Numbered from the stretch's first letter, positions 1 through 33,391 are shown. The stretch: 38,960 bases of DNA from an uncultured virus (IMG/VR IMGVR_UViG_2061766007_000212) (IMGVR_UViG_2061766007_000212); one strand, 5' to 3'. The notes: generated from the letters alone by a model not told the origin. Program-made: numbers and translations.

Positions 1-36
1 GTTCTGTCAGCAAGTCGAAGATTGAAAGCTGTTCCA

Positions 37-738
37 TCATCCCGCTTCACCTGCTTTCATGGCGGCGATTTCTCTTTCAAGGTCGCCCATCATTTCATCC
101 TGTACCCCGGAATAATCCCGCTGCGGGAAATCTTGCGCCGGGAGAACCTTCATCTGCGGTTTCTTCTTGCCGGTGCCTTTCAGCACGGCTTCCAGATAAG
201 CAAGGGTCGGTGCGCCATGTGTAGCGCATTCGTTGAACCCGGCGAGCAGTTTATCAAGGCCATGATCAGCGTATAAGGCAATCAGCCTGGCACGGACTGT
301 GTTGCTCATCTTAAAGCCGGCATCTTCTGCGGCAGTGAATACCCGGTCGTGTTCGTGCTGGATTCCGGATGCTTCGTCATCGTCTATAAAAGACGATTTC
401 ATTTCATTTCTTTTATTTTCATTTTCTTTCTTTTCTTTTAAGGTTTCTTTTGGTTCGTTTGGGTTTAGTTGGGTTTTATTGGGTTTTATTGGGTTTTGTT
501 TGGTTTTCGGTCTGCCACCTTTAGAACCGTTAACCTTGCAGGTTTCACGCCACTGCATTGCCATATCAATATCCCGCTTTGCTACCGGCCAAATAACCCG
601 TTCATTGCCAGTGAACACTTCGGGTTCTTCGCCCGTTTCAGCGTACAGGAGCATGGCATCGAACAACCGGCCTTTCTCGGAATCATCCAGCGATTGGATA
701 ACGTCCCGGAAGTTCGTCCAAACTTTCAGGTAATTCAT
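37..738 (-). CDS. Phage replication initiator, allele A (DUF6291-like N-terminus, DnaD-like C-terminus)
   Basis: LDDSEKGRLFDAMLLYA...NGSKGGRPK, repeat-coded linker, C-terminal PTLAYLEAVLK. Confidence 0.8.
   Translation of the reverse strand: MNYLKVWTNFRDVIQSLDDSEKGRLFDAMLLYAETGEEPEVFTGNERVIWPVAKRDIDMAMQWRETCKVNGSKGGRPKTKQNPIKPNKTQLNPNEPKETLKEKKENENKRNEMKSSFIDDDEASGIQHEHDRVFTAAEDAGFKMSNTVRARLIALYADHGLDKLLAGFNECATHGAPTLAYLEAVLKGTGKKKPQMKVLPAQDFPQRDYSGVQDEMMGDLEREIAAMKAGEAG
441..510. repeat. Iteron-like ~10-bp repeats (TTGGGTTTTA-like) beside a T-rich tract; probable origin in initiator A
   Basis: ttgggtttagttgggttttattgggttttattgggttttg; T-rich tract ~396-440. Confidence 0.7.
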
Positions 739-740
739 AA

Positions 741-955
741 TCACGCCACCCATCTATACCGGATATACCTGGTTATTTCACCGTCTTCATTCTTGCCGGT
801 TTCCCATATCCGGGAAATATGTTTCTTTACCCACGGTTCAAGCTCGCCCAGCCGGGTAGAGATTTTTGTGATATGCAGCTTTTCCATCGCTTCAAGCGTG
901 GTCAGCCCTCCCGGGTTGTGCTGCAGATACATCAAGATTTTATCTGATTGCTTCA
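741..955 (-). CDS. Small winged-HTH protein (start cut by gap)
   Basis: KQSDKILMYLQHNPGGLTTLEAMEKLHITKISTRLGELE; allele of 3506-3721. Confidence 0.7.
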
Positions 956-965
956 NNNNNNNNNN

Positions 966-1284
966 TGTTCCCTCCAAAATCAATGCATTCAGGATCAGCA
1001 TCGGGATCTTCTCCCCAGTCATCGCAGTGGTCGGTAAGCTCCCGGTCATCTATACCCGGGTTATAGTAGGATTCATCGAGGTTATTCCAGCGGATCGTGC
1101 AGGCTTCATGCTTCCAATCGAAGTTCATGCAGTTCCAGCACCCGTCAGCAGGTTTTTCCTGCGGTTCCGGTTCACCGTACTTATCGTGCATACGGGCTTC
1201 ATGCTCGGAAAGGTAAACCGTCGGATTGTGAACATCAAAGTCACTCATCGGCTCGTTGTCTTCATCGTTATAGATATAAGTCAT
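966..1284 (-). CDS. Acidic Cys-containing hypothetical protein
   Basis: CWNC motif; allele of 3718-4047; GGAGGACTGACAATG start. Confidence 0.7.
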
Positions 1285-1286
1285 TG

Positions 1287-1475
1287 TCAGTCCTCCTCGT
1301 CTTTCTTTAACGCTTCGCACTTGCGATGCCGTAATTCATCGAAAAGCATCCGCTGACATTCGTCATTCACGAACTTGCCTTGAGCGTATAACGGGCAACA
1401 TTTGCAGTTACGGTGACTTCCTTCTACCGGGCGGTAGCAGCAGAACATCGCCTGATAAAAAGTAGTATCTTTCAT
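1287..1475 (-). CDS. Small Cys-rich hypothetical protein
   Basis: Allele of 4050-4238. Confidence 0.65.
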   Translation of the reverse strand: MKDTTFYQAMFCCYRPVEGSHRNCKCCPLYAQGKFVNDECQRMLFDELRHRKCEALKKDEED

Positions 1476-1491
1476 TGTCAGNNNNNNNNNN

Positions 1492-1917
1492 TGCCGGGAT
1501 AACACGCATCCTCGGATGAGGAACCGGCAGGCTTCCGAAATATTCCCGGATTTCCTCGACCTTTTGCCAGTCCTTTGCATCAAGGTAATCGTTGGCGAAT
1601 ATCAGCCGCTTAACCTCGGTAGCTGCTTCCGTCCATTTATGCTTCTCGATTTCGTGCGTCTTCCATACTCGCAGTTCGATTCCTGCCGGGTGATAATCCG
1701 CAAATCCGCTTTGGCCGTCCGGGAAAGTAATCGAGTTGCCACCGATACCGTATTCTTCCTTCATAAATACCGCCAGTTCTTTGATTCCCAGGTTGCAGGA
1801 TGCGCAGTAGATACGCACCCTGCCGCCTTCAAATCCTGATCCTCGTCTGATCTGCGCTGTGAAGTGGCTTTCAACCTGTTCTGTCAGCAAGTCGAAGATT
1901 GAAAGCTGTTCCATCAT
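1492..1917 (-). CDS. Hypothetical protein with N-terminal QLSIF motif (allele)
   Basis: Nearly identical to 2362-2790; end at gap. Confidence 0.75.
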
Positions 1918-2043
1918 CCCGCTTCACNNNNNNNNNNATCCCGGTTCAGCCAGACGATGAACAGGTCAACCCCGCCCCTCATCAGTTCCGACCTTCCAGC
2001 GCAGACACCCTTCCGCATACCTTTACCGATGATCACCGGCAAA

Positions 2044-2262
2044 TCACATCTCCGCATATTCTTCCTCCCCGTCAGCACAGAACCAATCGTCTGATTGCAC
2101 TTTATTGTGATTCAGTTCGCATACGTTATAAAGAACATTCTCACCATCAGTAAAACAGTGTTTGCAATGCCGGCAGGTAACAAGCTCCATCTGCTTCAGT
2201 TCAATCGTTATCGCATCTTTCATCATCGGAATAAAAACCCATCCGTCAGGCAGTCTTGCCAT
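2044..2262 (-). CDS. Small Cys-rich phage protein
   Basis: LVTCRHCKHC...DDWFCADGE; upstream GAAGG. Confidence 0.7.
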   Translation of the reverse strand: MARLPDGWVFIPMMKDAITIELKQMELVTCRHCKHCFTDGENVLYNVCELNHNKVQSDDWFCADGEEEYAEM

Positions 2263-2361
2263 GCTATGACCTTCTTTCGCATTTATCGCCGTTTTTACGG
2301 CGATTTATTGTTGGCTGGATAAATACTCATCCTTGATACCGGACACGGGTAATTCGTGCGT

Positions 2362-2790
2362 TTACGCCGGAATAACACGCATCCTTGGATGAGGAACCGG
2401 CAGGCTTCCGAAATATTCCCGGATTTCTTCGACCTTTTGCCAGTCCTTTGCATCAAGATAATCGTTTGCGAATATCAGCCGCTTAACTTCGGTCGCTGCT
2501 TCCGTCCATTTATGCTTCTCAACTTCGTGCGTCTTCCATACTCGCAGTTCGATGCCGGCAGAATGATAATCCGCAAATCCGCTTTGACCGTCCGGGAAAG
2601 TGATCGAGTTGCCACCGATTCCGTATTCATCCTTCATGAATACCGCCAGTTCTTTAATCCCCAGGTTGCAGGATGCGCAGTAAATACGCACCCTGCCGCT
2701 TTCAAACCCTGATCCCCGTCTGATCTGCGCTGTGAAGTGGCTTTCAACCGGTTCTGTCAGCAAGTCGAAGATTGAAAGCTGTTCCATCAT
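2362..2790 (-). CDS. Hypothetical protein with QLSIF (beta-clamp-type) motif and GSGF/EYGIGG domain
   Basis: MMEQLSIFD; ATGA overlap with the initiator stop. Confidence 0.8.
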   Translation of the reverse strand: MMEQLSIFDLLTEPVESHFTAQIRRGSGFESGRVRIYCASCNLGIKELAVFMKDEYGIGGNSITFPDGQSGFADYHSAGIELRVWKTHEVEKHKWTEAATEVKRLIFANDYLDAKDWQKVEEIREYFGSLPVPHPRMRVIPA

Positions 2791-3503
2791 CCCGCTTCAC
2801 CTGCTTTCATGGCGGCGATTTCCTTTTCAAGGTCGCCAATCATTTCATCCTGTACCCCGGAATAATCCCGCTGCGGGAAGTCCTGGGCCGGAAGTACCTT
2901 CATCTGCGGTTTCTTCTTGCCGGCGCCTTTCAGGACGGCTTCCAGATAAGCAAGGGTCGGTGCGCCGTGCGTAGCGCATTCGTTAAACCCGGCGAGCAGT
3001 TTATCAAGGCCGTGATCAGCGTATAAGGCAATCAGCCTGGCACGGACTGTGTTGCTCATCTTAAAGCCGGCATCTTCTGCGGCGGTTAATACCCGGTCGT
3101 GTTCATGCTGGATTTCGGCGGCGGCTTCATCTTCTATAAATGATGCTTCTGTTTGGTTCTTATTATGTTCAGTTATAATTAAGTTATTATTATATTTGTC
3201 ACGTCCGTTATCATCCGTTAACGGGCGTTGACGGGCGTTATCATCCGTTTTCTTTTGTCCGATCCCTTTACGCCGGTTTTCGGAAGCCTGCTCGCACTTT
3301 TTCCGGTACGCTTCCTCCTGCTGGTCGATATCATCCCGGATAAAATCAAACGCAATGCTGATGCCGCCTGTCAGATCGGGAAGTTCGCCGTCCGCATGGT
3401 ACCTAATCAACGCCCGGATCAGGATGCCCATTTCTTCATCTGTCAGATTCGCCAGCTTTTGCAGGTACTTATCTTGACAGAAGAAACCTGACATTCTTGC
3501 CAT
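2787..3503 (-). CDS. Phage replication initiator, allele B
   Basis: LTDEEMGILIRALIRY N-terminus; C-terminal half almost identical to allele A. Confidence 0.8.
   Translation of the reverse strand: MARMSGFFCQDKYLQKLANLTDEEMGILIRALIRYHADGELPDLTGGISIAFDFIRDDIDQQEEAYRKKCEQASENRRKGIGQKKTDDNARQRPLTDDNGRDKYNNNLIITEHNKNQTEASFIEDEAAAEIQHEHDRVLTAAEDAGFKMSNTVRARLIALYADHGLDKLLAGFNECATHGAPTLAYLEAVLKGAGKKKPQMKVLPAQDFPQRDYSGVQDEMIGDLEKEIAAMKAGEAG
3160..3250. repeat. AT-rich tract plus iteron-like repeats (CGTTATCATCCGTT x2, ACGGGCGTT x2); probable origin in initiator B
   Basis: Read directly at ~3205-3250; AT-rich ~3160-3197. Confidence 0.7.
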
Positions 3504-3505
3504 GT

Positions 3506-3721
3506 TTACGCCACCCATCTATACCGGATATACCGGGTTATTTCGCCGTCTTCGTTCTTGCCGGTTTCCCATGTCCGGGAAATATGCTTCTTTACCCACG
3601 GTTCAATCTCGCCCAGCCGGGTAGAGATTTTTGTGATGTGCAGTTTTTCCATCGCTTCAATCGTGGTCAACCCTCCCGGGTTGTGCTGCAGATACATCAA
3701 GATTTTATCTGATTGCTTCAC
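3506..3721 (-). CDS. Small winged-HTH protein (HTH_39-like)
   Basis: ILMYLQ..GGLTTIEA...ITKISTRLGEI...RYIRY pattern. Confidence 0.75.
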   Translation of the reverse strand: MKQSDKILMYLQHNPGGLTTIEAMEKLHITKISTRLGEIEPWVKKHISRTWETGKNEDGEITRYIRYRWVA

Positions 3722-4047
3722 GGCTCGTTCCCTCCAAAATCAATGCATTCAGGATCAGCATCGGGATCTTCTTCCCAGTCATCGCAATGGTCGGTCAGCT
3801 CCCGGTCATCGGTATCCGGGTTATAGTAGGATTCATCGAGGTTATTCCAGTTCAGCGTGCAGGCTTCATGCTTCCAATCGAAGTTCATGCAGTTCCAGCA
3901 CCCGTCAGCAGGTTTTTCCTGAGGTTCCGGTTCTCCGCACTTGTCATGCATCCGGGCTTCATACTCGGAAAGGTAAACTGTCGGGTTATGGAAGTCGAAG
4001 TCGCTCATCGGTTCGTTGTCTTCGTCGTTATAGATATAATTCGGCAT
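3718..4047 (-). CDS. Acidic Cys-containing hypothetical protein
   Basis: Two conserved alleles; strong SD. Confidence 0.7.
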   Translation of the reverse strand: MPNYIYNDEDNEPMSDFDFHNPTVYLSEYEARMHDKCGEPEPQEKPADGCWNCMNFDWKHEACTLNWNNLDESYYNPDTDDRELTDHCDDWEEDPDADPECIDFGGNEP

Positions 4048-4049
4048 TG

Positions 4050-4238
4050 TCAGTCCTCCTCGTCTTTCTTTAACGCTTCGCACTTGCGATACCGTAATTC
4101 ATCGAAAAGCATCCGCTGGCATTCGTCATTTACGAACTTGCCTTGAGCGTATAGCGGGCAATATTTGCAGTTACGGTGACTTTCTTCTACCGGACGGTAG
4201 CAGCAGAACATCGCCTGATAAAAAGTAGTATCTTTCAT
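4050..4238 (-). CDS. Small Cys-rich hypothetical protein
   Basis: CC...CxxCPLY...C; AGGAGGACTGACAATG start. Confidence 0.7.
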   Translation of the reverse strand: MKDTTFYQAMFCCYRPVEESHRNCKYCPLYAQGKFVNDECQRMLFDELRYRKCEALKKDEED

Positions 4239-4250
4239 TGTCAGTCCTCC

Positions 4251-4754
4251 TTACAGATAGTTTTTTCTGAATATTTCCATCCATTCTTCGTGGCTGTGCC
4301 TGGCTTCAAAAGCGATCTGCGCAAGCCGTTTCAGCGAATCCCCTTTTTCCCGGTTGTATTGCGCTCCGTCCGTTCCGGTATGGCAGTCATGGCAAAGGTA
4401 AACCCATAATCCATACTTTTCGGATAACGGACGGTTCGCAACACCGCCGAGCACATGATGGCGTTCAAGCCCGGTCACCCTGCCGCAGAGGTAACAGCGT
4501 TCTCCNNNNNNNNNNTTGGATTCAAAAGCGATCTGCGCCAGCCGTTTAAGGGAATCCCCTTTTTCCCGGCTATACTGCGCTCCGTCCGTTCCTGTGTGGC
4601 AGTCATGGCAAAGATAAACCCATAAACCATACTTTTCGGATAACGGACGGTTCGCAACGCCGCCGAGAACGTGATGGCGTTCAAGCCCGGTCACCCTGCC
4701 GCAGAGGTAACAGCGTTCTCCGTTTTGCATGATGCTTTTGCTGGGCTTTGCCAC
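4251..4754 (-). CDS. HNH-type zinc nuclease (Ref-like); two overlapping allele fragments either side of a gap
   Basis: CYLCG...ERHHV..G...LCHDCH. Confidence 0.75.
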   Translation of the reverse strand: MAKPSKSIMQNGERCYLCGRVTGLERHHVLGGVANRPLSEKYGLWVYLCHDCHTGTDGAQYSREKGDSLKRLAQIAFESXXXXGERCYLCGRVTGLERHHVLGGVANRPLSEKYGLWVYLCHDCHTGTDGAQYNREKGDSLKRLAQIAFEARHSHEEWMEIFRKNYL

Positions 4755-5260
4755 TGGCGTTTCATCCTTTCCGTTTCTTCCGGGTATGTCGGGATTCCTA
4801 ACCCTTCAGCTTCTTGAACCAGAGAGTCTATTAAACGGCTCATTTGCCTGCTGTCGTATACGGATGAACCGTAATACAGGATCACGTTCGTGCAGCCGTC
4901 TATCCGGCTTTTCAGCGTGTCCGTCTGCCATCCGATGCCGTTCTTCTCCCAACCTTCCCGGAGCCGGTCAACGGCTTTATCCTGTACGCAGACCGTTGTG
5001 CTGACCCCGCCGATCTCCTTGATTGCGTGGCGGTAAACCTCTGACCGGCTGATCCCGGTCTTTTCGGCGATTTTGTCGATGATCACCCAGCAGTAAGCGT
5101 TCGCATCCCGGCTTTTCGCTTTGCTGGCCTTCTTGATCTCGACCTTGACCGCTTCACCTTTCAGGTCATCAAATATTTGTCCGGGGTTATCCCGGGTGGT
5201 GAACGACACCAGCCATTCACCACCGGATAACGGGAGAGCTTCCTTCAGCTTGCCGATCAT
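4691..5260 (-). CDS. NinB/Orf-like recombination mediator
   Basis: SRDANAYCW...IAEK...GSSVYDSRQMSRLIDSLVQEAEGLGI; next to the annealase. Confidence 0.7.
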   Translation of the reverse strand: MIGKLKEALPLSGGEWLVSFTTRDNPGQIFDDLKGEAVKVEIKKASKAKSRDANAYCWVIIDKIAEKTGISRSEVYRHAIKEIGGVSTTVCVQDKAVDRLREGWEKNGIGWQTDTLKSRIDGCTNVILYYGSSVYDSRQMSRLIDSLVQEAEGLGIPTYPEETERMKRQWQSPAKASCKTENAVTSAAG

Positions 5261-6108
5261 GCGGCACCACCCGCCGGAATGAACTTGCGGATGGCGGCAA
5301 ACACGTTCTTCGCTTCATCCATCGTCATGGATTTCCAGTTCGGTTTCTTCGGCAGGCTTCCGCTTTTCGCCAGCTCATCAGCCATGCCGACAATCTGCTT
5401 TTTCGCTTCATCGTAATCTGCGATACCCATTGTTTCCTGAATGTCGGAAATTTCGTTGCGGATGAAGTTAATCACTGTCGGCAACGTCTGCGCTTCCTTC
5501 GGCAGCTTGTCCGATGTGCTGACACTTCCGGGTGCATCCTGATTGATTGGTTTCACTTCCGGCGGTTCGTCATCCGGCTGTTCTGGCTTGTCCGGGGCTT
5601 CCTCACTGATCTCGCCCCAGCGGAAGCAGATTTTCCCGGTTTTCTGGTTCTTGATCTCGATGCCGGTGATCACGCCGTCTGTGTAGCCGATGCCCTTCAC
5701 CGTGAACCGGTCAAAGCAGGCAGGACGGCCACGGTTTTCGGTGATCGTGCAGTCCTTCGAACTGACCCAGATAAACGGGGCTGTGTACAGTTCACGACCG
5801 ATACCCCAGTTGAAGCAGGCACGTTTGAAAGAGTCGGAAGCAAGGCCCTTTTCTTTCTCGGTGTTGCTCTCGGTACCGGTGTCTTCCTTGCTGACCCACT
5901 CGCCGGTCTCCGGGTTCTTGATAGAAACGATGCAGTTGCGGTTATCCCGGGTATGCTCCCGCTTCCAGTTGAACGGGCCAACGACCTCATCGAGGATATT
6001 CTGATCGCACCGGGCATCCTTATAGAGCAGAAGGGAAAGCCCGTTTTCTTTGATCTGTGCAATGCGGCAGTCGATTTCGTCTGCTCGCAGGGTTCTGAAC
6101 ATATTCAT
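5257..6108 (-). CDS. Rad52/Sak-like ssDNA annealing protein, allele 1
   Basis: YKDARCDQNILDE..GP..W; KEDTG...EKGLASDSFKRACFNWGIGRELY. Confidence 0.85.
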   Translation of the reverse strand: MNMFRTLRADEIDCRIAQIKENGLSLLLYKDARCDQNILDEVVGPFNWKREHTRDNRNCIVSIKNPETGEWVSKEDTGTESNTEKEKGLASDSFKRACFNWGIGRELYTAPFIWVSSKDCTITENRGRPACFDRFTVKGIGYTDGVITGIEIKNQKTGKICFRWGEISEEAPDKPEQPDDEPPEVKPINQDAPGSVSTSDKLPKEAQTLPTVINFIRNEISDIQETMGIADYDEAKKQIVGMADELAKSGSLPKKPNWKSMTMDEAKNVFAAIRKFIPAGGAA

Positions 6109-6126
6109 TGAAAATTCTCCTTTCAC

Positions 6127-6155
6127 TTGCGGCCCGGAGAATCATGTGATACAAT
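6127..6155 (+). promoter_or_regulatory. Antisense sigma-A promoter for sRNA-1
   Basis: TTGCGG-17-TACAAT with TGTGn extended -10; identical at 9675-9703. Confidence 0.75.
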
Positions 6156-6161
6156 ATCTCC

Positions 6162-6222
6162 GGGTGGTTTGATTGATTGTCAGTCCTTCGAATTACCTGC
6201 CCGGCTGAAAAGCCGGTTTTTT
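6162..6222 (+). ncRNA. Putative small RNA (sRNA-1): seed hairpin plus intrinsic terminator
   Basis: 11-bp stem 6162-6172/6188-6198 with G-U pairs, loop TTGATTGTCAGTCCT; terminator CCGGCT-GAAA-AGCCGG-T6. Confidence 0.7.
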
Positions 6223-6364
6223 ATTTGCCTGCGTAATACCATGTGATATGCTGGTTCGCCATCGGGCAAACAACGTCCGGCGGGATCCTGTCATCGTAGA
6301 CAAGGTTCAGCACCGACAATACCATGACCGCCAGGATTGCCAGCCACATAATCACCTTCTGCAT
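6221..6364 (-). CDS. Small single-pass membrane protein
   Basis: MQKVIMWLAILAVMVLSVLNLV; allele at 9765-9908. Confidence 0.7.
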   Translation of the reverse strand: MQKVIMWLAILAVMVLSVLNLVYDDRIPPDVVCPMANQHITWYYAGK

Positions 6365-6368
6365 TTCC

Positions 6369-6671
6369 TCACCCCCTTCCAACGTTTTCAGCCAACTGGC
6401 GCAGGTCACATCCGAGGTCTTCCACCTTATAGATCATGTCCCGGATTTGCTTGTTCAGGTCCTTTGCGGTGTCGTAATCTTCCTCGAACTTCAGCAGCGC
6501 ATCCTCTGCGTTCAGCAGCAGGTCGACAATCTGATCCGTCAGTTTGTCGGCCTTCGCCAGTTCCTTTTCCTGCCGCTCGGTTTCTTCTTCAAAAGCGGAG
6601 TTATCTTCATACGGCGGCATACCGTACATTTCGGCTTCCCGGATATATGGAGCATCAGCAATCTGCGTCAT
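6369..6671 (-). CDS. Acidic coiled-coil hypothetical protein
   Basis: DAPYIREAEMYG; allele at 9913-10186. Confidence 0.7.
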   Translation of the reverse strand: MTQIADAPYIREAEMYGMPPYEDNSAFEEETERQEKELAKADKLTDQIVDLLLNAEDALLKFEEDYDTAKDLNKQIRDMIYKVEDLGCDLRQLAENVGRG

Positions 6672-6867
6672 CTTCCTCGGCCTCCTTCTCGATATCGACC
6701 TTCAGCGTATACTGGCTTTCCTCGCCGTCCTTCAGCGAAAACGCCCGTGATGCGGTTTCTGAAATGCTCATCGAAACATGGTCGATGGTTTCGTCATACA
6801 TCCTGACCACTCGCCGGATATCCTCCAGCAAACAACCGATGAGAAATTCACATTCCTGTCTGTTCAT
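6655..6867 (-). CDS. Hypothetical protein
   Basis: AAGGACTGACAATG start; coupled to neighbours. Confidence 0.65.
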   Translation of the reverse strand: MNRQECEFLIGCLLEDIRRVVRMYDETIDHVSMSISETASRAFSLKDGEESQYTLKVDIEKEAEEDDADC

Positions 6868-6869
6868 TG

Positions 6870-7097
6870 TCAGTCCTTCTTTCTCGGAACGATCACCCGT
6901 CCCGTGGTTTTTTTATGCAGGTTAACCCTGCGTTCTGCCGGGTTCCGTTCCCGGCTTTGTTCCCATTCAGCCAACGCCCAGGCCGGAGCCGTCAGCGGGT
7001 TTTCATAATGGAACATCTGCCGCAGATACTTCCGGGCGGTTTTCGCTGTGCAGCCATACCGTTCGGAAATATCGCTGACCTTCAGCAACCGTTCCAT
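6870..7097 (-). CDS. Excisionase-like HTH protein
   Basis: MERLLKVSDISERYGCTAKTARKYLR; follows the cro-like gene; partial allele 10467-10618. Confidence 0.6.
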   Translation of the reverse strand: MERLLKVSDISERYGCTAKTARKYLRQMFHYENPLTAPAWALAEWEQSRERNPAERRVNLHKKTTGRVIVPRKKD

Positions 7098-7099
7098 AT

Positions 7100-7315
7100 T
7101 TAACCCGCCTTTCGTTGTTTCCGCTCGACCGCTGCCCGGATCAGCGTTTCGCAGTCGCATCCAAGCACGCTGGCAACGGTCGGGATCTTCTCGGCCTTCG
7201 GGAAACAGGTTCCTTTTTCCCAACTAACCACCGTTCCCTGCGTTACGCCGCAGGCTTCCGCGACCTGCGTTTGAGTCATCTCCTTCATGACCCGGAGTTT
7301 CTTGATCAGGTTTAT
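7100..7315 (-). CDS. Cro-like XRE HTH protein, probable ATA start
   Basis: MTQTQVAEACGVTQGTVVSWEKG; AAGGAG lies 9 nt before an in-frame ATA. Confidence 0.8.
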   Translation of the reverse strand: MNLIKKLRVMKEMTQTQVAEACGVTQGTVVSWEKGTCFPKAEKIPTVASVLGCDCETLIRAAVERKQRKAG

Positions 7316-7349
7316 TGGAATCAGCTCCTTTCATTTGATGTCTAATAAT

Positions 7350-7390
7350 ATTATATGAAATATTCAAATAATGTCAATAGTTTTCCAATA
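7350..7390 (-). promoter_or_regulatory. Early promoter with operator-like site upstream of the cro-like gene
   Basis: TTGACA(7377-7372)-16-TATAAT(7355-7350); 22 bp identical to 14574-14595. Confidence 0.8.
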
Positions 7391-7399
7391 TTCATTCGG

Positions 7400-7428
7400 G
7401 AAAGAATACCGGGGATATACCGCCCCGG
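7400..7428 (-). terminator. Terminator-like hairpin ending the first early transcript
   Basis: CCGGGG-cggtatat-CCCCGG then TATTCTTT; equivalent hairpin at 8028-8047. Confidence 0.55.
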
Positions 7429-7434
7429 CTCGGT

Positions 7435-7599
7435 TCAGTGCTTCTTCATGAAGTAATAGTATTCGTCCTTCTGGCAGGAATGAGCATCAGCATAATAGCA
7501 TTGTGCGATCTTGTGGACCGCTTCTTTCTCCGTATCGTAAACACCAACGAAATCTTCTCTGCCGCTGGAAAGGTGCCGGTAATATACGTACCACATCAT
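7435..7599 (-). CDS. Small hypothetical protein (MMWYVY...YYFMKKH family)
   Basis: Not in ORF track; homologous to 8054-8221 and 10629-10765. Confidence 0.7.
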   Translation of the reverse strand: MMWYVYYRHLSSGREDFVGVYDTEKEAVHKIAQCYYADAHSCQKDEYYYFMKKH

Positions 7600-7835
7600 C
7601 ACACCTCCTGGTCCTCAACCCGGAAAACCTCTGCAATCCGATGCTCGAAGTTTGCACCGAACATTTCACGCATTTTGCTAATGGCTTCCACCCGGTTCTG
7701 CGCTTGGCAGGTGAACACTTTCCATTTCAGGTCGTGTCCATCAATAAAGCAGACTTTATAGGTTCCCGGTTCGTATTCTATGTATTTCCAGCGTTGCCGC
7801 CCGTGTCCCCATACTGCCCGGAAAGNNNNNNNNNN

Positions 7836-7923
7836 AAACCGTACCCTGCGTAACCCCGCAGGCCTTCGCGAGTTCGGCCTGTGTCATTTCGGCATTGATC
7901 CGAAGTTTCTTGATTCCGTTCAT
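7836..7923 (-). CDS. Second Cro-like XRE allele (5' fragment)
   Basis: MNGIKKLRINAEMTQAELAKACGVTQGTV, then gap. Confidence 0.75.
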
Positions 7924-8053
7924 CTTTTCACCCCCTTTGCGGAAAAATCTTTTTCTGATATTAGATATTATAATTGATTCGTCTGTTAATTTCAATATAT
8001 TTTCTAATAAATTCTGATATTTTTATGCCGGGGATATGCCGCCCCGGCTCGGT

Positions 8054-8221
8054 TCAGTGCTTCTTCATGAAGTAATAGTATTCGCCAAGCTGACCGAGGT
8101 CTTTATCAATGGCGTAGCATTTCGCAATATGTTTGATTGCAGCCTGCGGTGTTTCAAACGTCTGATTAACGCAATCATCCCGACCGCTGGCGATGATCCT
8201 GCAGTATACGTACCACATCAT
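8054..8221 (-). CDS. Small hypothetical protein (allele)
   Basis: MMWYVYCRIIASGRDD...YYFMKKH; AGGAGG SD. Confidence 0.7.
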   Translation of the reverse strand: MMWYVYCRIIASGRDDCVNQTFETPQAAIKHIAKCYAIDKDLGQLGEYYYFMKKH

Positions 8222-8287
8222 CACACCTCCTGTTCTATATATTTCCAGCGTTGCCGCCCGTGTCCCCATACTGCCCGNNNNNNNNNN

Positions 8288-8808
8288 ACTGGGCTTTGCC
8301 ACTGGCGTTTCATCCTTTCCGTTTCGTCCGGGTAGGTCGGGATGCCTAACCCTTCAGCTTCCTGCACCAGGGAATCAATTAACCGGCTCATTTGCTGGCT
8401 ATCGTATACGGATGAGCCGTAATACAGGATCACATTCGTGCAGCCGTCTATCCGGCTTTTGAGCGTGTCTGTCTGCCATCCGATACCGTTTTTCTCCCAG
8501 CCTTCCCGGAGCCGGTCAACGGCCTTGTCCTGAACGCATACCGTTGTTGAAACCCCGCCGATTTCCTTGATTGCGTGGCGGTAAACCTCGGACCTGCTGA
8601 TTCCGTTCTTTTCGGCGATCTTGTCGATGATTAGCCAGCAATAAGCGTTCGCATCCTTTGACCTCGCTTTGCTGGCCTTCTTGATCTCAACCTTGACCGC
8701 TTCGCCTTTCAGATCATCAAATATCTGCCCGGGGTTATCCCGGGTGGTGAAGGACACAAGCCATTCACCACCGGATAACGGGAGAGATTCCTTCAGCTTT
8801 CCGATCAT
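8288..8808 (-). CDS. NinB/Orf-like protein, allele 2 (3' end at gap)
   Basis: Near-identical to 4691-5260. Confidence 0.7.
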
Positions 8809-9656
8809 GCGGCACCACCTGCCGGCATCAGCTTACGGATAGCGGCGAAAACGTTCTTCGCCTCGTCCATGGTCAGGCTGTTCCACTTCGGCTTCTTCGG
8901 AAGGGTGCCGCTTTCAGCCAGCGTGTTCGCCATGTCAACGACCTGCTTTTTCGCATCATCGAAGGTTTCGATTCCGCAGAGTTCCTGAATATCGGCGATC
9001 TCGTTACGGATATAATTCATCACTGGGGAAAGGGTCTGCGCTTTTCCAGGCAGCTTGTCCGATGTGCTGACACTTCCGGGTGCATCCTGATTGATTGGTT
9101 TCACTTCCGGCGGTTCGTCATCCGGTTGTTCCGGCTTTTCCGGGGCTTCCTCGCTGATTTCGCCCCACTTAAAGCAGATTTTCCCGGTCGCCTGGTTTTT
9201 GATTTCAACGCCTGTGATCACGCCGTCCGTGTAGCCGATTCCCTTCACTGTGAACCGGTCATAGCAGGCAAGCCGTCCCCGGTTTTCCTTGATATTGCAG
9301 TCCGAAGCCTTGATCCAGATAAACGGGGCAGTGTACAATTCCCGTCCGATTCCCCAGTTGAAGCAGGCACGTTTGAAGCTGTCGGAAGCAAGGCCCTTTT
9401 CCTTCTCGGTGTTGCTTTCGGTTCCGGTGTCTTCCTTGCTGATCCACTGCTTGAGCTCTTCCGACCAGATGGAAACGATGCAGTTCCGGTTATCCCGGGT
9501 GTGTTCACGCTTCCAGAACATCGGGCCAACGGTTTCATCGAGGATATTCTGATCGCACCGGGCATCCTTGTAGAGCAGAAGGGAAAGCCCGTTTTCCTTG
9601 ATCTGTGCAATGCGGCAGTCGATTTCGTCTGCTCGCAGGGTTCTGAACATATTCAT
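8805..9656 (-). CDS. Rad52/Sak-like annealase, allele 2
   Basis: Same motifs as 5257-6108. Confidence 0.85.
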   Translation of the reverse strand: MNMFRTLRADEIDCRIAQIKENGLSLLLYKDARCDQNILDETVGPMFWKREHTRDNRNCIVSIWSEELKQWISKEDTGTESNTEKEKGLASDSFKRACFNWGIGRELYTAPFIWIKASDCNIKENRGRLACYDRFTVKGIGYTDGVITGVEIKNQATGKICFKWGEISEEAPEKPEQPDDEPPEVKPINQDAPGSVSTSDKLPGKAQTLSPVMNYIRNEIADIQELCGIETFDDAKKQVVDMANTLAESGTLPKKPKWNSLTMDEAKNVFAAIRKLMPAGGAA

Positions 9657-9709
9657 TGAAAATTCTCCTTTCACTTGCGGCCCGGAGAATCATGTGATAC
9701 AATATCTCC

Positions 9710-9766
9710 GGGTGGTTTGTTGTCAGTCCTTCAAGTTGCCCTCCCGGCTGAATAGCCGGGGTTTTT
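9710..9766 (+). ncRNA. Putative sRNA-1, allele 2
   Basis: Stem GGGTGGTTTG/CAAGTTGCCC, loop TTGTCAGTCCTT; terminator CCCGGCT-GAAT-AGCCGGG-GTTTTT; same promoter. Confidence 0.7.
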
Positions 9767-10182
9767 ATTTTCCTGCGTAATACCATTCGATATGCTGGTT
9801 CGCCATCGGGCAAACAACGTCAGGCGGGATCCTGTCATCGTAAACAAGGTTCAGCACCGCCAATACCATCACCGCCAGGATTGCCAGCCACATAATCACC
9901 TTCTGCATTTCTTTACCCCCTTTCAACGTTTTCAGCCAGCCGGCGCAGGTCGCATCCGAGGTCTTCCACCTTATAGATCATGTCCCGGATCTGCTTATTC
10001 AGGTCCTTTGCGGTGTCGTAATCTTCCTCGAACTTCAGCAGCGCATCNNNNNNNNNNNNNNNNNNNNNNNNNNNNNNNNNNNNNNNNNNNNNNNNNNNNN
10101 NNNNNNNNNNNNNNNNNNNNNNNGTCTTCATACGGCGGCATCCCGTACATTTCGGCTTCCCGGATATAGGGAGCATCAGCAA

Positions 10183-10464
10183 TCATGCAGACACCTCTTC
10201 TCCGGCCTTCACGGGGATAAAGTCAAAAGAACCGTCTGCGTTGTAGTACACCCCATCAACCCTCATGCTTCCATCGCCGAAAACATGGCAAGACAGGATT
10301 TCCGCATCATCTTTTCCGTCTTCCTCATGAACCGCCCTGAAATCAAGGCACCCGTCGATGGTATAAAAATTAATGTGGTTGATATTCTGATCAAACAGTT
10401 TCACAAATGCTTCGATCCCCTTCATCATATTGATCAGGGTCATTTCCATTTCCTTACGTGTCAT
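10183..10464 (-). CDS. Hypothetical protein occupying the slot of 6655-6867
   Basis: GGGACTGACAATG start, after the xis-like allele. Confidence 0.7.
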   Translation of the reverse strand: MTRKEMEMTLINMMKGIEAFVKLFDQNINHINFYTIDGCLDFRAVHEEDGKDDAEILSCHVFGDGSMRVDGVYYNADGSFDFIPVKAGEEVSA

Positions 10465-11555
10465 TGTCAGTCCCTCTTTCTCGGAACGATCACCCGTTCC
10501 GTGGTTTTTCTGTGCAGGTTAACCCTGCGTTCTGCCGGGTTATGTTCCCGGCTCTGTTCCCATTCCTTCAACGCCCAGGCCGGAGCCGTCAGCGGGTTTT
10601 CATAATGGAACATCTGCCNNNNNNNNNNTAGTGCTTCTTCATGAAATAATAGTATTCGCCAAGCTGACCGAGGTCTTTATCAATGGCGTAACACTTCGCA
10701 ATATGCTTGATTGCGGCCTGCGGTGTTTCAAACGTCTGATTAACGCAATCATCCCTGCCGCTGGCNNNNNNNNNNNNNNNNNNNNNNNNNNNNNNNNNNN
10801 NNNNNNNNNNNNNNNNNNNNNNNNNNNNNNNNNNNNNNNNNNNNNNNNNNNNNNNNNNNNNNNNNNNNNNNNNNNNNNNNNNNNNNNNNNNNNNNNNNNN
10901 NNNNNNNNNNNNNNNNNNNNNNNNNNNNNNNNNNNNNNNNNNNNNNNNNNNNNNNNNNNNNNNNNNNNNNNNNNNNNNNNNNNNNNNNNNNNNNNNNNNN
11001 NNNNNNNNNNNNNNNNNNNNNNNNNNNNNNNNNNNNNNNNNNNNNNNNNNNNNNNNNNNNNNNNNNNNNNNNNNNNNNNNNNNNNNNNNNNNNNNNNNNN
11101 NNNNNNNNNNNNNNNNNNNNNNNNNNNNNNNNNNNNNNNNNNNNNNNNNNNNNNNNNNNNNNNNNNNNNNNNNNNNNNNNNNNNNNNNNNNNNNNNNNNN
11201 NNNNNNNNNNNNNNNNNNNNNNNNNNNNNNNNNNNNNNNNNNNNNNNNNNNNNNNNNNNNNNNNNNNNNNNNNNNNNNNNNNNNNNNNNNNNNNNNNNNN
11301 NNNNNNNNNNNNNNNNNNNNNNNNNNNNNNNNNNNNNNNNNNNNNNNNNNNNNNNNNNNNNNNNNNNNNNNNNNNNNNNNNNNNNNNNNNNNNNNNNNNN
11401 NNNNNNNNNNNNNNNNNNNNNNNNNNNNNNNNNNNNNNNNNNNNNNNNNNNNNNNNNNNNNNNNNNNNNNNNNNNNNNNNNNNNNNNNNNNNNNNNNNNN
11501 NNNNNNNNNNNNNNNNNNNNNNNNNNNNNNNNNNNNNNNNNNNNNNNNNNNNNNN

Positions 11556-11903
11556 TTCACGCATTTTGTTATAGTATGTATTGATATTAAATATCTTTTC
11601 TTTCGCTGATTTATCCATATGCAGGTAATCTCTTTCTGAAATCATGATTCGATACTGCCTTTTAAGTTTCGTTAGCTGATATCTAATACCATACTCATTC
11701 AGCACCGACGCAACCTTTGTCATTTCAAAAATGCGTTTTTCATCATCCATTAAGAAATACTGCCCATAGTTCATACCGCCATTAAGTCCGTTCCAATAGC
11801 CCGGCCTGTAGCGGCTTTCCTGACAGATGTATTTTTCACCATCGCACAGCACTTCAACCTTAACATTCTTCGCATTATCAGGTAATTCAACAGTAAATAG
11901 CAT
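11556..11903 (-). CDS. Hypothetical protein (3' end in gap)
   Basis: Open frame of ~115 codons; GGAGG SD. Confidence 0.6.
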
Positions 11904-12185
11904 TCATTTCACCTCCGCAAACTCAAATACAGGCGTTCCGTCAACGTGAACCGTGCAGATATCGAACAGGCCGTAAGCGGCCCAGTCGCAACCTTTTCCC
12001 TTTACATAACGCCCGATGCACTCACAGTAAATGCTATTACTGTCGGCTCCTGCATCCTTGAACTCCTGACCGGAAGCAATATTGCCGCATTTCGGGCACT
12101 TAAACTTCCAGTCCTCAATGAATTTACCGAATAACCTTTCTCCTTCGGTACGCCACTCTCTCAACGTATACTTCTTATCTTCCAT
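11904..12185 (-). CDS. VVA0879-like zinc-binding protein
   Basis: EW..EGERLFG...WKFKCPKCG...CIGRY..GCDWAAYGLF; partial allele 13634-13789. Confidence 0.75.
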   Translation of the reverse strand: MEDKKYTLREWRTEGERLFGKFIEDWKFKCPKCGNIASGQEFKDAGADSNSIYCECIGRYVKGKGCDWAAYGLFDICTVHVDGTPVFEFAEVK

Positions 12186-12731
12186 GTCAGTCCTTCCTTT
12201 CTGCCGGGTTACAATGCCACCCGGCGGGGCGTGTCGTTTATCCGTAAATATCCTTCAGCAATTTGNNNNNNNNNNACCCTTCATACCCGTATACAAAGAT
12301 GCTGTTTTTCTTCTTCGTATCCCGGATCACGCAGTTCCCGTTTTCGTACTTCTCATAGATGAAAGCCTGACCGTTCAGCAGGAANNNNNNNNNNGAAAGA
12401 AAGTATAATCTCCGTGGAAAGGACAGTCTGGTTCACCGTCAAACTCGTTATTGCAAGCTGAGCAAAGGTGTGGTTCTCTGTCTTCCATCGGGTTTGTATC
12501 CTTCCATAACCTTCCTTCTGGGTCTTCATATACTGGGCGATCCCATGAATCAATACCTTTGAAAGTAAGTATCATATTTCTNNNNNNNNNNCTCACCGTC
12601 AAAATCGTTATTGCAAGCAGAGCAAAGGTTTGGTTCTGTATCTTCCATCGGGTTTGTATCCTTCCATAATCGTCCTTCTGGGTCTTCATACACTGGGCGA
12701 TCCCATGAATCAATACCTTTGAAAGTAAGTA

Positions 12732-12950
12732 TCATATTTCTTCCTCCTTCATCAATTCATACCCGAACTGCCTGACCGTCCGTTTCAGTCCTTCGTAGCC
12801 GTATACGTAAATCTGGTTTTTCTTCTTCGTGTCCCGGATCACGCAGTTGCCGTTTTCGTACTTCTCATAGACGAAAGCCTGACCGTTCAGCAGGAAGCCG
12901 TTTCCGGGGAAAAGCTGGGTCAGCTTGCCGTTATTCATGGTTATCTGCAT
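12732..12950 (-). CDS. Small hypothetical protein
   Basis: MQITMNNGKLTQLFPGNGF; allele fragment at 12276-12384. Confidence 0.6.
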   Translation of the reverse strand: MQITMNNGKLTQLFPGNGFLLNGQAFVYEKYENGNCVIRDTKKKNQIYVYGYEGLKRTVRQFGYELMKEEEI

Positions 12951-13405
12951 CGGGATCCTCCTTGAACGGGTCATCGTACTTGTAAGCGTTCATCACATCC
13001 CAGTTATGACCAACAGGTGCCGAAAGCGAATACCGCCCGGATAATTTGTATTCGCAGTAATCCTCAATGGCGGTGACCACATCCTTGAAGGTCAGGCACC
13101 AATCGTCAGGTTCGCCAACGTGGTAATTTCCCCCGTCAGCCATCTTTGCGAAAACCCTACGGCCTTGAATCATCGCCGGGAGTTTCCGGATAAGGNNNNN
13201 NNNNNTCTGCCGCAAGCTGATTGCTTACAAGGTCGGTAACGTTCTTTTCGATTGCTTCATTGTCAATTTCAATAGTGATTTTCATTGTCAGTCCTCCTTA
13301 AACGGGTCATNNNNNNNNNNATGGAAATTGCCGCCATCTGCCATTCTTGCGAAAACCCTACGGCCTTGAATCATCGCCGGGAGTTTCCGGATAAGGTCTG
13401 CATGG

Positions 13406-13633
13406 TCAATCTTCATCTTGATCCTCCTCAAACACGAACGGGTCTTCATACGGGCAGGTTCCACGGGATTTCATGATATGCTCCTGCACCGCAACGAAAC
13501 TGCGGTATTCATAGATGAAATGCCCGTCCTCTCCACCGTACAACCGCCAGTAATTGCCGACACGCTGGAAACAGAACTTGCGGTCATGCGTGTAAAAGAC
13601 TTCGGAGATGCCGCCCAATTCCTGCCAGGTCAT
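13406..13633 (-). CDS. Small hypothetical protein
   Basis: GGAGG SD; abuts the VVA0879-like allele. Confidence 0.6.
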   Translation of the reverse strand: MTWQELGGISEVFYTHDRKFCFQRVGNYWRLYGGEDGHFIYEYRSFVAVQEHIMKSRGTCPYEDPFVFEEDQDED

Positions 13634-13927
13634 TCATTCCACCTCCGCAAACTCAAATACGGGCGTTCCGTCAACGTGAACAGTGCAGATATCAAACAGG
13701 CCATAAGCGGCCCAATCACAGCCTTTTCCTTTTACGTACCGCCCGATGCACTCACAGTAAATGCTATTACTGTCGGCTCCTGCATCCTTNNNNNNNNNNN
13801 NNNNNNNNNNNNNNNNNNNNNNNNNNNNNNNNNNNNNNNNNNNTCCTGTGATTCTTCGCAAGCAACCAATACTTTCATGTTGCATCCTTTCTGCCGGGTT
13901 ACAACGCCACCCGGCGGGGCGTGTCGT

Positions 13928-14140
13928 TTATCCGTAAATATCCTTCAGCAATTTGCCGCATACTGCGGATTTGACTGCATCGAAATATTTCTGATCACTG
14001 AACAGTTTGTAATATCCGATGAAATTAACGAACGTTTTCTTTTCCTCATCGGTGAAGCAGGATAAGATTGCTTCTCTTTCAATATCACTGCCGTGAAGAT
14101 AACGGCTTGCTACGGCGAATGCCTGTTCTGTCTGCGTCAT
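13928..14140 (-). CDS. Small hypothetical early protein
   Basis: MTQTEQAFAVASRYLHGSDIER; start seen in two alleles. Confidence 0.65.
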   Translation of the reverse strand: MTQTEQAFAVASRYLHGSDIEREAILSCFTDEEKKTFVNFIGYYKLFSDQKYFDAVKSAVCGKLLKDIYG

Positions 14141-14253
14141 GCAGCCTTCCTCCTTTCCTTCCATTCCTTCAGCTTCCGTTCGTTCTCCCGCTCNNNNNNN
14201 NNNGCTGCCGTGGAGATAACGGCTCGCAACGGCGAATGCCTGTTCTGTCTGCG

Positions 14254-14349
14254 TCATGCCGCCTTCCTCCTTTCCTTCCATTCCTTCAGCTTCCGTTCGT
14301 TCTCCCGCTCAATCTGGCGGTGAATCTTCAGCCGTTCCTTCATGCTCAT
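14254..14349 (-). CDS. First gene of the early operon; 31-aa basic peptide
   Basis: MSMKERLKIHRQIERENERKLKEWKERRKAA; AAGGAAGGACTGACAAATG start; ATGA coupling. Confidence 0.6.
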   Translation of the reverse strand: MSMKERLKIHRQIERENERKLKEWKERRKAA

Positions 14350-14554
14350 TTGTCAGTCCTTCCTTTCGATGTTTATAAGTGGGGAAGGCTTCTCAGTGAT
14401 GTTATCCGGATCACTTACCCCGGTAATTGTTCGCCGGGTTCGCTTTGAAGTCGTAACCTGTCCGGTTTACCCCTCGCTGGCGTTGCTTACGCTGTCTGGG
14501 CTTATCGGGCTGTCCCTCGCCTTCCCCTGTCGGCCAATTTCTTGGCTCAATTCT

Positions 14555-14628
14555 ATTATAATTGGTTTTCCAATAATGTCAATAGTTTTCCAATAAAATA
14601 TTGAAAAAAATATTGGATAAATTATAAT
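14555..14628. promoter_or_regulatory. Divergent lysis/lysogeny promoters with operator repeats
   Basis: Minus strand TTGACA(14582-14577)-16-TATAAT(14560-14555); plus strand TTGAAA(14601)-16-TATAAT(14623); TTTTCCAATA twice. Confidence 0.8.
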
Positions 14629-14651
14629 TATCACAAAAGGAGGTCAAAAAA

Positions 14652-15078
14652 ATGGATGATATTATCCGCAACCTTCGCAAGCGGCATTACCTCACGCAGG
14701 CCGAGTTTGCAAAAAAAGTCGGCGTTACGCAGGGAACGGTCAGCCAGTGGGAACACGGGATCATCAGCCCGAACTCAAACCAGTTGCGATCCATTTCNNN
14801 NNNNNNNGAAAAAGGTCGGCGTTACGCAGGGAACAGTCAGCCAATGGGAACACGGGATCATCAGCCCGAACTCAAACCAGTTGCGATCCATTTCTGAAGC
14901 CTTCGGTGTTTCGATTGATTCGCTGGTCGGGAAAAGCACACGGGATGAATACGTAAAGTTAAGCGATATCGAATATAGATTGATAACGGCCTTCCGGGAT
15001 GCGGATAGTTCGACACGGGAAAACGCAATGATCATTCTCGAAAACAGCGCACTTAAAAAAGGCGCAATAGCAGGATAA
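14652..15078 (+). CDS. CI-like XRE repressor (HTH duplicated across a gap)
   Basis: IRNLRKRHYLTQAEFAKKVGVTQGTVSQWEHG; divergent from the early operon, upstream of the integrase. Confidence 0.85.
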
Positions 15079-15085
15079 TTGACTT

Positions 15086-32678: not shown

Positions 32679-33391
32679 TACTGCCACCGCTCCCTGTATT
32701 TCACGGTTCCGGTTCCTGTGATCTTCACGCTGCCTGTGCGAGGAATCAGGAACCGGCTGTTAACGTTGTAATACTGCATCAGGCCTGTGATCGTTGATCC
32801 GTTCTTCGACCATGCGGTCTGGTTATCAAGGTCAATCACCGCATTCCCGACTGGTATCGTTGAGAAGGTTATCGTTTTCCCGTCAAGCGAATAGCTTTGG
32901 TTGCTGACCGCTGATCCTGACACCGTCCTCTCGATCCGCATCAGCGGCGGCGCATCACCGAGGATAAATGCTGTTGACCCGCACGCAACGCTCTTTTCGG
33001 CTTTTGCGTTCCAATACGGATTATCGTAACAGGTGAACACGAGCCGCAGTTTGCTCTCCCACCATTGCCGAAGCGAAGGTTCAGGCTTTCCGGTACAGAT
33101 CGCCATCAGATACAGTTCGGGATGACCTGGAAGTTCAAGTTTATATTCCTTATCATTCTTCGCCCATTGTGAGATCGCCATCAGTTCTTTCTGCCTGTTA
33201 ACCTTGTTCATTTCCAGCAACGCGAACGTGATCGAAACAGTACGTGTACCGGCCCTGCTTCTGACGAAATCAGAACCGCCCCTGATAGCACGGGGGCGGT
33301 TCACTTCATCATACGAAATAGGGCTGACCCTTACGTCCTCGATCTTCACACCAGCAACGCTGTCCAGGCTGACACCATCGAATACAATCAT
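32678..33391 (-). CDS. Distal tail (Dit-like) protein B
   Basis: MIVFDGVSL...FTCYDNPYW...YRERWQ; directly after the tape measure gene. Confidence 0.8.
   Translation of the reverse strand: MIVFDGVSLDSVAGVKIEDVRVSPISYDEVNRPRAIRGGSDFVRSRAGTRTVSITFALLEMNKVNRQKELMAISQWAKNDKEYKLELPGHPELYLMAICTGKPEPSLRQWWESKLRLVFTCYDNPYWNAKAEKSVACGSTAFILGDAPPLMRIERTVSGSAVSNQSYSLDGKTITFSTIPVGNAVIDLDNQTAWSKNGSTITGLMQYYNVNSRFLIPRTGSVKITGTGTVKYRERWQ

Follow-up and report, generated by a model that had tools for sequence, protein, structure and literature searches.

The DNA studied here is a scaffold of 38,960 nucleotides from an uncultured virus (IMG/VR IMGVR_UViG_2061766007_000212), called the window throughout, which holds a temperate phage of the gut or rumen. 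Several small genes of its early operon, which runs leftward from a promoter-like site at 14582-14555 to base 1, start directly behind a common word that reads (G)RR-GGACTGACA-(A)ATG on the gene (minus) strand, and the complement of this word is displayed in the loop of a small RNA predicted on the other strand. We consider that the word is probably a portable ribosome-site tag, by which early genes are enrolled in the regulon of a phage antisense RNA. The tag would mark a subset of the early genes as targets of this one phage-encoded RNA, the loop of which would pair with the Shine-Dalgarno sequence and the spacer of the tagged mRNAs and thereby keep the 30S subunit off the tagged starts.

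Written on the plus strand, the exact word TGTCAGTCC has ten matches in the window, all of them on the plus strand and all within 1285-14359, where simple arithmetic for a 9-mer in 2 x 38,960 bases gives an expectation of about 0.3 exact matches. With at most one mismatch allowed there are 18 matches compared to 6.8 +/- 2.6 in shuffled sequences, and 0/100 shuffles reach 18, which bears out the observation of the initial annotation. A plus-strand CAT stands immediately before the motif at 1285, 4048, 4239, 6868, 10465 and 13286, that is, the ATG follows the tag directly; at 14351 one extra A precedes the ATG (offset +1), and at 12185 the final A of the word doubles as the A of the ATG (offset -1). 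A ninth start copy at 1476-1481 is interrupted by the gap 1482-1491, so that the start copies are eight intact and one gap-cut.

In the early region (window 1-14800) the assembly alternates between at least two strain variants, with 10-N gaps at the joins (33 N runs are present in the whole scaffold), several early genes are doubled at about 85-95% identity (the variant-repeat pairs 966-1481 / 3726-4245 and 5257-6230 / 8805-9770 are examples) and the gene order of the scaffold is not natural; the gap-free order of the early genes is given by the related contigs L001, L004 and L103. Because the strain variants are repeated in this region, the raw tag counts exceed the true number of loci. Once the variants are collapsed (1285 = 4048; 1476 = 4239; 6868 and 10465 form one slot, C), six distinct loci, A to F, are left, in agreement with the estimate of the initial annotation of about six early starts that include the first gene of the operon:

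14351..14359, minus strand: tag F, GGAAGGACTGACAaATG, preceding gene 14254-14349 (31 amino acids, MSMKERL...), with which the small genes of the early operon begin, spacing +1
13286..13294, minus strand: tag E, GGAGGACTGACAATG, preceding a gene with its start at 13285, which the gap 13196-13205 interrupts
12185..12193, minus strand: tag D, GGAAGGACTGACATGG, before gene 11904-12185 (93 amino acids), spacing -1, with the end of a hairpin 9 nt upstream
10465..10473, minus strand: tag C2, GAGGGACTGACAATG, before gene 10183-10464 (93 amino acids), its TGA being the stop of the upstream Xis-like helix-turn-helix (HTH) gene
6868..6876, minus strand: tag C1, GAAGGACTGACAATG, before gene 6655-6867 (70 amino acids), in the slot shared with C2 but with a different gene
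4239..4247, minus strand: tag B, GGAGGACTGACAATG, before gene 4050-4238 (62 amino acids, Cys-rich), with the variant copy 1476-1481 cut by a gap
4048..4056, minus strand: tag A, GGAGGACTGACAATG, before gene 3718-4047 (109 amino acids), its TGA being the stop of gene B
1285-1293, minus strand: variant copy of tag A, before gene 940-1284

The ortholog of the gene behind tag F is also tagged in L001, L004, L095 and L103; this first gene of the operon (31-34 amino acids, MSMKERL...) is thus tagged in five records, and it has an ATGA overlap with the next gene. Slot D is found again in L001 (2410) with another gene. The initial annotation had seen the word in none of the late genes, and a whole-window search agrees with this view: no exact TGTCAGTCC lies in the structural or late genes of the window, and none of the five one-mismatch matches beyond 15 kb is located at a plausible start. 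It had also pointed out that the TGA inside the word is not the stop codon of the upstream gene at 4239, 12185 and 14351, and that translational coupling alone would not explain the word. Indeed, the TGA is the upstream stop at slot C and at tag A and not at F, D and B. When all contigs are counted, 16/33 start tags have the TGA as the upstream stop, 16/33 do not and 1/33 could not be assigned; in the second type of tag described below, the TGA is changed to TAA.

Slots F, D and C have a GC-rich hairpin, the end of which is 8-9 nt upstream of the GGAC core and which is followed by AGAAAG(G)AR. Its coordinates in the window are 6877-6905, 10474-10502 and 12194-12225, and it is also found in L001, L004, L015 and L103. 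At slot C the hairpin lies within the coding end of the Xis-like gene and displays GC-to-AU compensation between the variants. It is not found at A, B or most tags of the second type.

The two exact copies which lie away from starts, at 6178 and 9721, are not followed by a start codon (ACAATC and ACAACA stand there) and both are inside the locus of the predicted small RNA, a gap of 110 bp flanked by the Rad52/Erf-like recombinase gene and a gene for a small membrane protein. The RNA of about 65-85 nt is predicted on the plus strand, opposite to the early operon. In plus-strand reading, a stem of 10-12 pairs with a 12-16-nt loop that holds UUGUCAGUCCUU is followed by a GC-rich hairpin and a U run, and the following elements were assigned:

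6127..6226, plus strand: predicted small RNA copy 1, transcript about 6162-6226
6127-6132 (-35, TTGCGG), 17-nt spacer with TG at 6147-6148, and 6150-6155 (-10, TACAAT), plus strand: promoter of copy 1
6161-6172 with 6188-6199, plus strand: stem 1 of copy 1
6178-6186, plus strand: loop of copy 1, TGTCAGTCC
6201-6216, then T6, plus strand: stem of the terminator of copy 1, from a terminator scan
9675..9771, plus strand: predicted small RNA copy 2, a strain variant
9675-9680 (-35) and 9698-9703 (-10), plus strand: promoter of copy 2
9710-9719 with 9732-9741, plus strand: stem 1 of copy 2
9721-9729, plus strand: loop of copy 2, TGTCAGTCC
9742-9761, then a T run, plus strand: terminator of copy 2, from a terminator scan

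The fold energy of the plus strand is -27.5 kcal/mol (z = -4.5), compared to z = -0.6 for the minus strand. Four differences between copies 1 and 2 fall in the 3' arm, and each of them keeps the pairing on the plus strand only, via G-U. The apical loop displays 5'-UUGUCAGUCCUUC-3', and the seed is located in the apical loop in all folds.

Relatives were sought with DNA patterns from the RNA gap in the IMG/VR and JGI/ENA contigs, and a covariance model built from eight relatives added L015 at 45 bits. Thirteen records beyond the window carry the RNA unit, with 12 distinct RNA sequences. The common fold (stem, 12-16-nt loop with the seed, terminator and U run) is present in every RNA, and in every relative the RNA strand is more stable than the opposite strand. 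The promoter TTGCGN-17-TGnTAnAAT, with its hexamers, TG and 17-nt spacing, is found in 12/12 distinct sequences, and its elements are kept in L015 although the spacer sequence there is unrelated. In a gap-free alignment of eight sequences, 94.9% of the 79 cells of stem 1 are paired compared to 43-63% with slid partners; G-U accounts for 21 of the cells and would read A-C on the opposite strand, and the stem has five pairs with a change on one side and one pair with changes on both. L103, L104 and L015 enclose the same loop in quite different stem sequences, and the exact word is retained while flanks and stems diverge.

The RNA has a narrow distribution in the material searched. No RNA homolog was found at 80 recombinase-based loci other than L015 and L019, and a distant-similarity search of the phage collection gave three weak matches only, all to the recombinase gene. 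A tag-based contig scan contributed L125 alone, the contig of which ends short of the RNA locus. We set aside 11/13 loci of the pattern scan in viral contigs, which have a single motif copy each and look like chance matches; genome contigs gave 0 matches to the RNA promoter pattern and five to the loop pattern, in unrelated taxa and with one motif copy each, which were likewise taken as chance. Searching for repeated 9-mers at starts in 106 loci brought up this tag in L004/L099 only, and an A-rich word in L008/L009. There, in an unrelated large viral contig (minus strand, 7404-15532), GGAGAAACA(AA) stands directly before eight starts, with nine copies on one strand.

No counterpart was recognised among the RNA families: Rfam gave 0 matches for the window at gathering thresholds, and an E-value search of 6100-6260 gave five weak matches with a best E-value of 0.3, the C4 family not being among them. 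An early-strand promoter with CTGACA as its -35 was considered for this gap and rejected, since the scan gave one weak site, at 9726-9699 only, and the spacing is wrong in copy 1. Around the -10 of the small RNA lies an inverted repeat, CCGGAGA-N16-TCTCCGG (window 6133-6165 and 9681-9713), which is kept in most relatives and absent in L015. We discarded it as an RNA hairpin given this absence and the mismatches in L094 and L100, which fall on different strands; because of these mismatches it rather resembles a DNA site, possibly an operator. The long form of the terminator hairpin has a second GAGUCCUUGA-like word at its apex, a partial repeat of the seed (L001 4640-4670; also in L004, L095, L101, L105 and L015).

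The loop is the exact complement of GAAGGACUGACAA. It can form 13 bp with every tag, from the Shine-Dalgarno purines through the base before the AUG, tags with GGAGG or GAGGG being paired via G-U, and the loop variant of copy 1 can form 15 bp by extending to the A and U of the start codon. The energy of the duplex between the loop and the tagged start regions is -20 to -25 kcal/mol, compared to -16.4 kcal/mol for the best untagged ATG and a median of -6.6 (357 window ATGs opening 40 or more codons). At its own locus the RNA is fully complementary to the early transcript.

Two loop types occur among the RNAs, GGACTGAC (type 1) and GGGCTAAC (type 2), each invariant among the RNAs of its type, and the word in the tags is GGACTGACA or GGGCTAACA by type. 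Neither 8-mer was found on the opposite strand in any RNA-bearing contig; therefore, the RNA is the only complement of the tags available in the phage, and there is none within the early mRNA. The type-1 records (n=9) have 22 start tags of the GGACTGAC type and one of the other type (L001 1727). In the type-2 records (n=5), of which two contig pairs are near-duplicates, 10/10 start tags are GGGCTAAC and none is type 1 (two in L094, three in L098, one in L096, one in L106 and three in L015). Loop and tag thus agree at 32/33 start tags, from few lineages. The slot after the conserved Xis-like gene (...VIVPRKR-D/G-stop), which is orthologous in both groups, changes its type along with the loop. 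A complete type-2 relative of 36,895 bp has GGGCTAAC three times, at two starts and in the RNA loop, and its single GGACTGAC is located inside a late gene, away from starts. Non-cognate duplexes are 5-9 kcal/mol weaker than the cognate ones. Since both differences between the types are A/G transitions, a stepwise change of type via G-U intermediates is possible; GGGCTGACA is found at a start in L100.

The suggestion of the initial annotation that the tagged starts are targets of a small RNA is therefore supported in silico by the promoter, hairpin and terminator, by the complementary loop, by the covariation of the stem and by the co-variation of loop and tag. Several points weigh against it. 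No RNA sequencing run was found to cover the stretch, and the short contig pieces of relatives obtained from two sequencing runs carry nothing on the RNA locus, its strand or its ends. There are just two loop types and few independent type-2 lineages (the L094 group and L015), thus the count behind the co-variation is small and it ignores kinship. The distance between slot C and the RNA locus is a mere 0.7 kb or so, and part of the match is therefore due to linkage. A type-2 tag is found inside a type-1 phage, at L001 1727-1740 (GGGCTAACAcaATG), before the first gene beside the repressor; this tag may have arrived lately from a type-2 phage, or the gene behind it may be escaping the RNA. Because the G-to-A change keeps the stop codon (TGA to TAA), which is used at 16/33 tags, part of the conservation may serve termination or reinitiation. 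The control for stem 1 is modest, as 31/500 shuffles reach the observed percentage of paired cells. Finally, the cluster K mycobacteriophages discussed below keep 16-18 copies of a start-associated word of their own with or without a complement in a hairpin loop.

The genes behind the tags are ORFans of 31-114 amino acids. The 15 different tagged proteins that were scanned have 31-109 amino acids, and 14/15 are without functional annotation in PHROGs or Pfam, the remaining one resembling the ArdC N-terminal domain under the Pfam cut-off. Untagged early genes include those for the recombinase, a NinB-like protein, HTH regulators, a winged-helix protein and DUF6291. If the antisense RNA acts on the tagged genes, the pairing may also reduce downstream expression, since the operon opens with a tagged gene that has an ATGA overlap with its neighbour. 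The role of the RNA would then be to silence leaky or superinfecting early transcripts in the lysogen, or to shut off the early ORFans later in the infection, and the two loop and tag types would act as specificity classes. One could go further and imagine a plug-in translational immunity, an extension that we offer tentatively and to which we give much less credence than to the antisense-RNA reading of the tag: any small gene recombined behind a tag would immediately come under one prophage RNA, this RNA would silence resident early ORFans and those of superinfecting phages of the same type, and GGACTGAC and GGGCTAAC would define heteroimmune classes set by two base pairs, a multi-gene counterpart of the c4 RNA of phages P1 and P7.

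The c4 RNA and its target derive from one transcript and one strand, the RNA being released by cleavage, whereas the RNA predicted here has its own promoter on the opposite strand and no Rfam family match. As a small phage RNA of the immI system of P1/P7, c4 exposes sequences in loops that pair around a ribosome-binding site and block translation, and differences in the pairing region give two specificity (heteroimmunity) classes (PMC12197685). In logic this is the closest known system, with loop-exposed pairing, occlusion of the ribosome-binding site and two classes, as we propose here too. However, c4 targets one operon (icd-ant), while here 2 to 6 dispersed genes bear the target word. In layout, the predicted RNA is closest to OOP of lambda and sar of P22, RNAs of about 70 nt with their own promoter and terminator which run counter to the early operon in temperate phages and reduce the expression of an early gene (PMC12197685). 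For OOP and sar the overlapped transcript is the sole target; in contrast, the overlap is intergenic here and the proposed targets are elsewhere, with 13-nt matches at starts. Neither c4 nor OOP nor sar has a multi-gene tag. In phage T4, the RegA protein turns down translation of many early genes at their initiation regions and recognises a loose site. It is similar in that one phage factor serves many early genes, but the factor proposed here is an RNA with an exact 13-nt match. A literature search that covered few subscription journals found no report of a small RNA from a phage that is the complement of a tag repeated at start codons.

The best surviving alternative is that the tag is a translation signal by itself, comparable to the start-associated sequence (SAS) of mycobacteriophages. 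As an extended ribosome-binding site, or as a site for a host or phage protein, it would set the level or timing of the translation of early ORFans, and the intergenic hairpin copy would be incidental or a decoy. We hold this to be rather unlikely. It is true that the tag overlaps a purine-rich Shine-Dalgarno sequence at the right distance from the ATG, and that shared words of site plus spacer do occur in phages, as GGAGAAACA at eight starts in the unrelated L008 illustrates. However, the two variable positions lie outside the part that is able to pair with what we take to be the tail of the 16S rRNA. In addition, the intergenic copy never has a start codon in the 12 distinct sequences, yet it is an exact 13-nt word in a covarying hairpin with its own opposite-strand promoter and terminator, and it changes at the same two positions as the tags; a pure translation signal leaves both facts unexplained.

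The comparison with SAS, which the initial annotation had raised, stands in part. In cluster K mycobacteriophages the SAS has the consensus GGGATAGGAGCCC with at most two deviations (PMC3203893, PMC12699233), and it is a short asymmetric word that overlaps the Shine-Dalgarno sequence near the ATG, in one orientation, at non-structural genes of different families (PMC3203893). These reports give its function as unknown, and binding of RNA or protein is left open by the authors (PMC3203893, PMC11373665, PMC12699233). The placement is shared, as the word of the window is also found a few bases from starts, in one orientation and at non-structural genes only. The end of a hairpin 8-9 nt upstream of tags F, D and C, though not of A, B or most type-2 tags, recalls the inverted repeats adjacent to SAS (PMC3203893). 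The two systems differ in the word itself (GGGATAGGAGCCC compared to GGACTGACA or GGGCTAACA), in the host phylum and in the copy number (11-19 for SAS), and the upstream hairpins at F, D and C have no likeness to the consensus of ESAS, the subset of SAS with an upstream inverted repeat.

A hairpin is also present in cluster K. In Mycobacterium phage Anaya the only reverse copy of SAS is found within a hairpin of the gp96-gp97 gap, in its 10-nt loop:

[quoted passage not shown]

Some cluster K records annotate a hypothetical protein over this conserved hairpin. It is kept in 11 sampled phages, with 92.4% of cells paired compared to 32-48% when slid and with three pairs changed on both sides, and in 6/11 of them the loop is complementary to SAS. 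In all five cluster K genomes checked, two of which have unrelated loops, one and the same SAS word is present in 16-18 forward copies. We therefore rejected an anti-SAS small RNA as a general explanation of the cluster K SAS, which these five phages keep whether the loop is complementary, altered or unrelated. As loop and SAS do not co-vary there, the mechanism proposed for the window does not explain SAS generally, and a start-associated word can evidently be maintained with no antisense partner.

The initial annotation had also named a boundary for the exchange of gene cassettes as an alternative, and it would be tempting to see the tag mainly as such: a short homology for the single-strand annealing recombinase of the phage, which swaps small gene cassettes, the placement at starts and the likeness to the RNA loop being secondary. 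These phages indeed encode Rad52/Erf-like and NinB-like recombination proteins. At least five unrelated genes are found behind the same tag in slot C, and the initial annotation was right that very different genes in this slot are both tagged, since the proteins of 6655-6867 and 10183-10464 share 27% identity over 33 N-terminal residues only. Orthologs differ in tag status: the L004 counterparts of the tagged gene A of the window (79% identity) and of the tagged ArdC-like gene of L001 (77%) both lack a tag, and the second early gene, which has none in the window, stands behind a type-2 tag in L015 (66%). Inserted ORFans are flanked by tags, in the order HNH-tag-B-tag-A in the window and Xis-tag-91aa-tag-70aa in L004 compared to Xis-tag-70aa in L001 and L103 (aa, amino acids). 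So far the idea of a boundary holds, with tags at left junctions and tag-flanked insertions. The right junction of the slot-C cassettes, however, is the start of the next gene and is without a tag; therefore, a boundary role is not the whole story. Sequences in slot D diverge at the tag itself, which argues that the tag travels with the downstream gene. Moreover, 13-19 nt is a very short homology, and neither an opposite-strand hairpin RNA with the complement nor a one-strand placement exactly at start codons is predicted by recombination. We thus regard a tag that is mainly a recombination boundary as quite unlikely. Its use as a short homology for cassette exchange is compatible with the antisense-RNA reading and may be a by-product.

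Common descent only, in which the tags would all go back to a single ancestral ribosome site, multiplied as small genes were duplicated, and the intergenic match would be a functionless gene conversion within each phage, would account for tag families with a longer shared context (AGAAAGGAAGGACTGACA at F and D; ACGGAGGGCTAACA in type 2) and for the single type of all copies in a phage, but is very improbable, given that the tagged proteins are mutually unrelated (C1 and C2 included) and nearly all lack functional annotation, that conversion would work poorly on tracts of 13-19 nt which lie kilobases from each other, and that the word stays exact while flanks and stems diverge.

The remaining features of the window, assigned by protein annotation where genes are concerned, agree with a temperate phage:

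14555..14582, minus strand: early promoter-like site TTGACA-16-TATAAT, divergent from the repressor-like HTH gene and the integrase gene
14652 (start), plus strand: repressor-like HTH gene
15086-16249, plus strand: integrase gene
5257-6108: Rad52/Erf-like recombinase gene
33388-36213: tape measure gene

Head and tail genes occupy 18-39 kb (Dit, major tail, minor head, head-tail adaptor and tape measure). Two further consensus promoter-like sites of the early region, at 7350-7377 and 7967-7995 on the minus strand, are located upstream of Cro-like HTH genes; because of them, early genes downstream of slot C may have a promoter of their own.

The two natural specificity types of loop and tag are a ready-made compensatory-mutation experiment. 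If the antisense-RNA reading is right, it would offer a concrete and testable mechanism for one start-associated motif, while the function of the best-known motif of this kind, SAS, is still called unknown in papers from 2024 and 2025 (PMC11373665, PMC12699233). Phage antisense RNAs known so far mostly have a single overlapped transcript, or host genes, as their targets. Early-gene control would be organised in a new way by a regulon inside the phage's own genome that is defined by a short, mobile tag in front of start codons, and such a regulon would explain how newly acquired ORFans come under control immediately.

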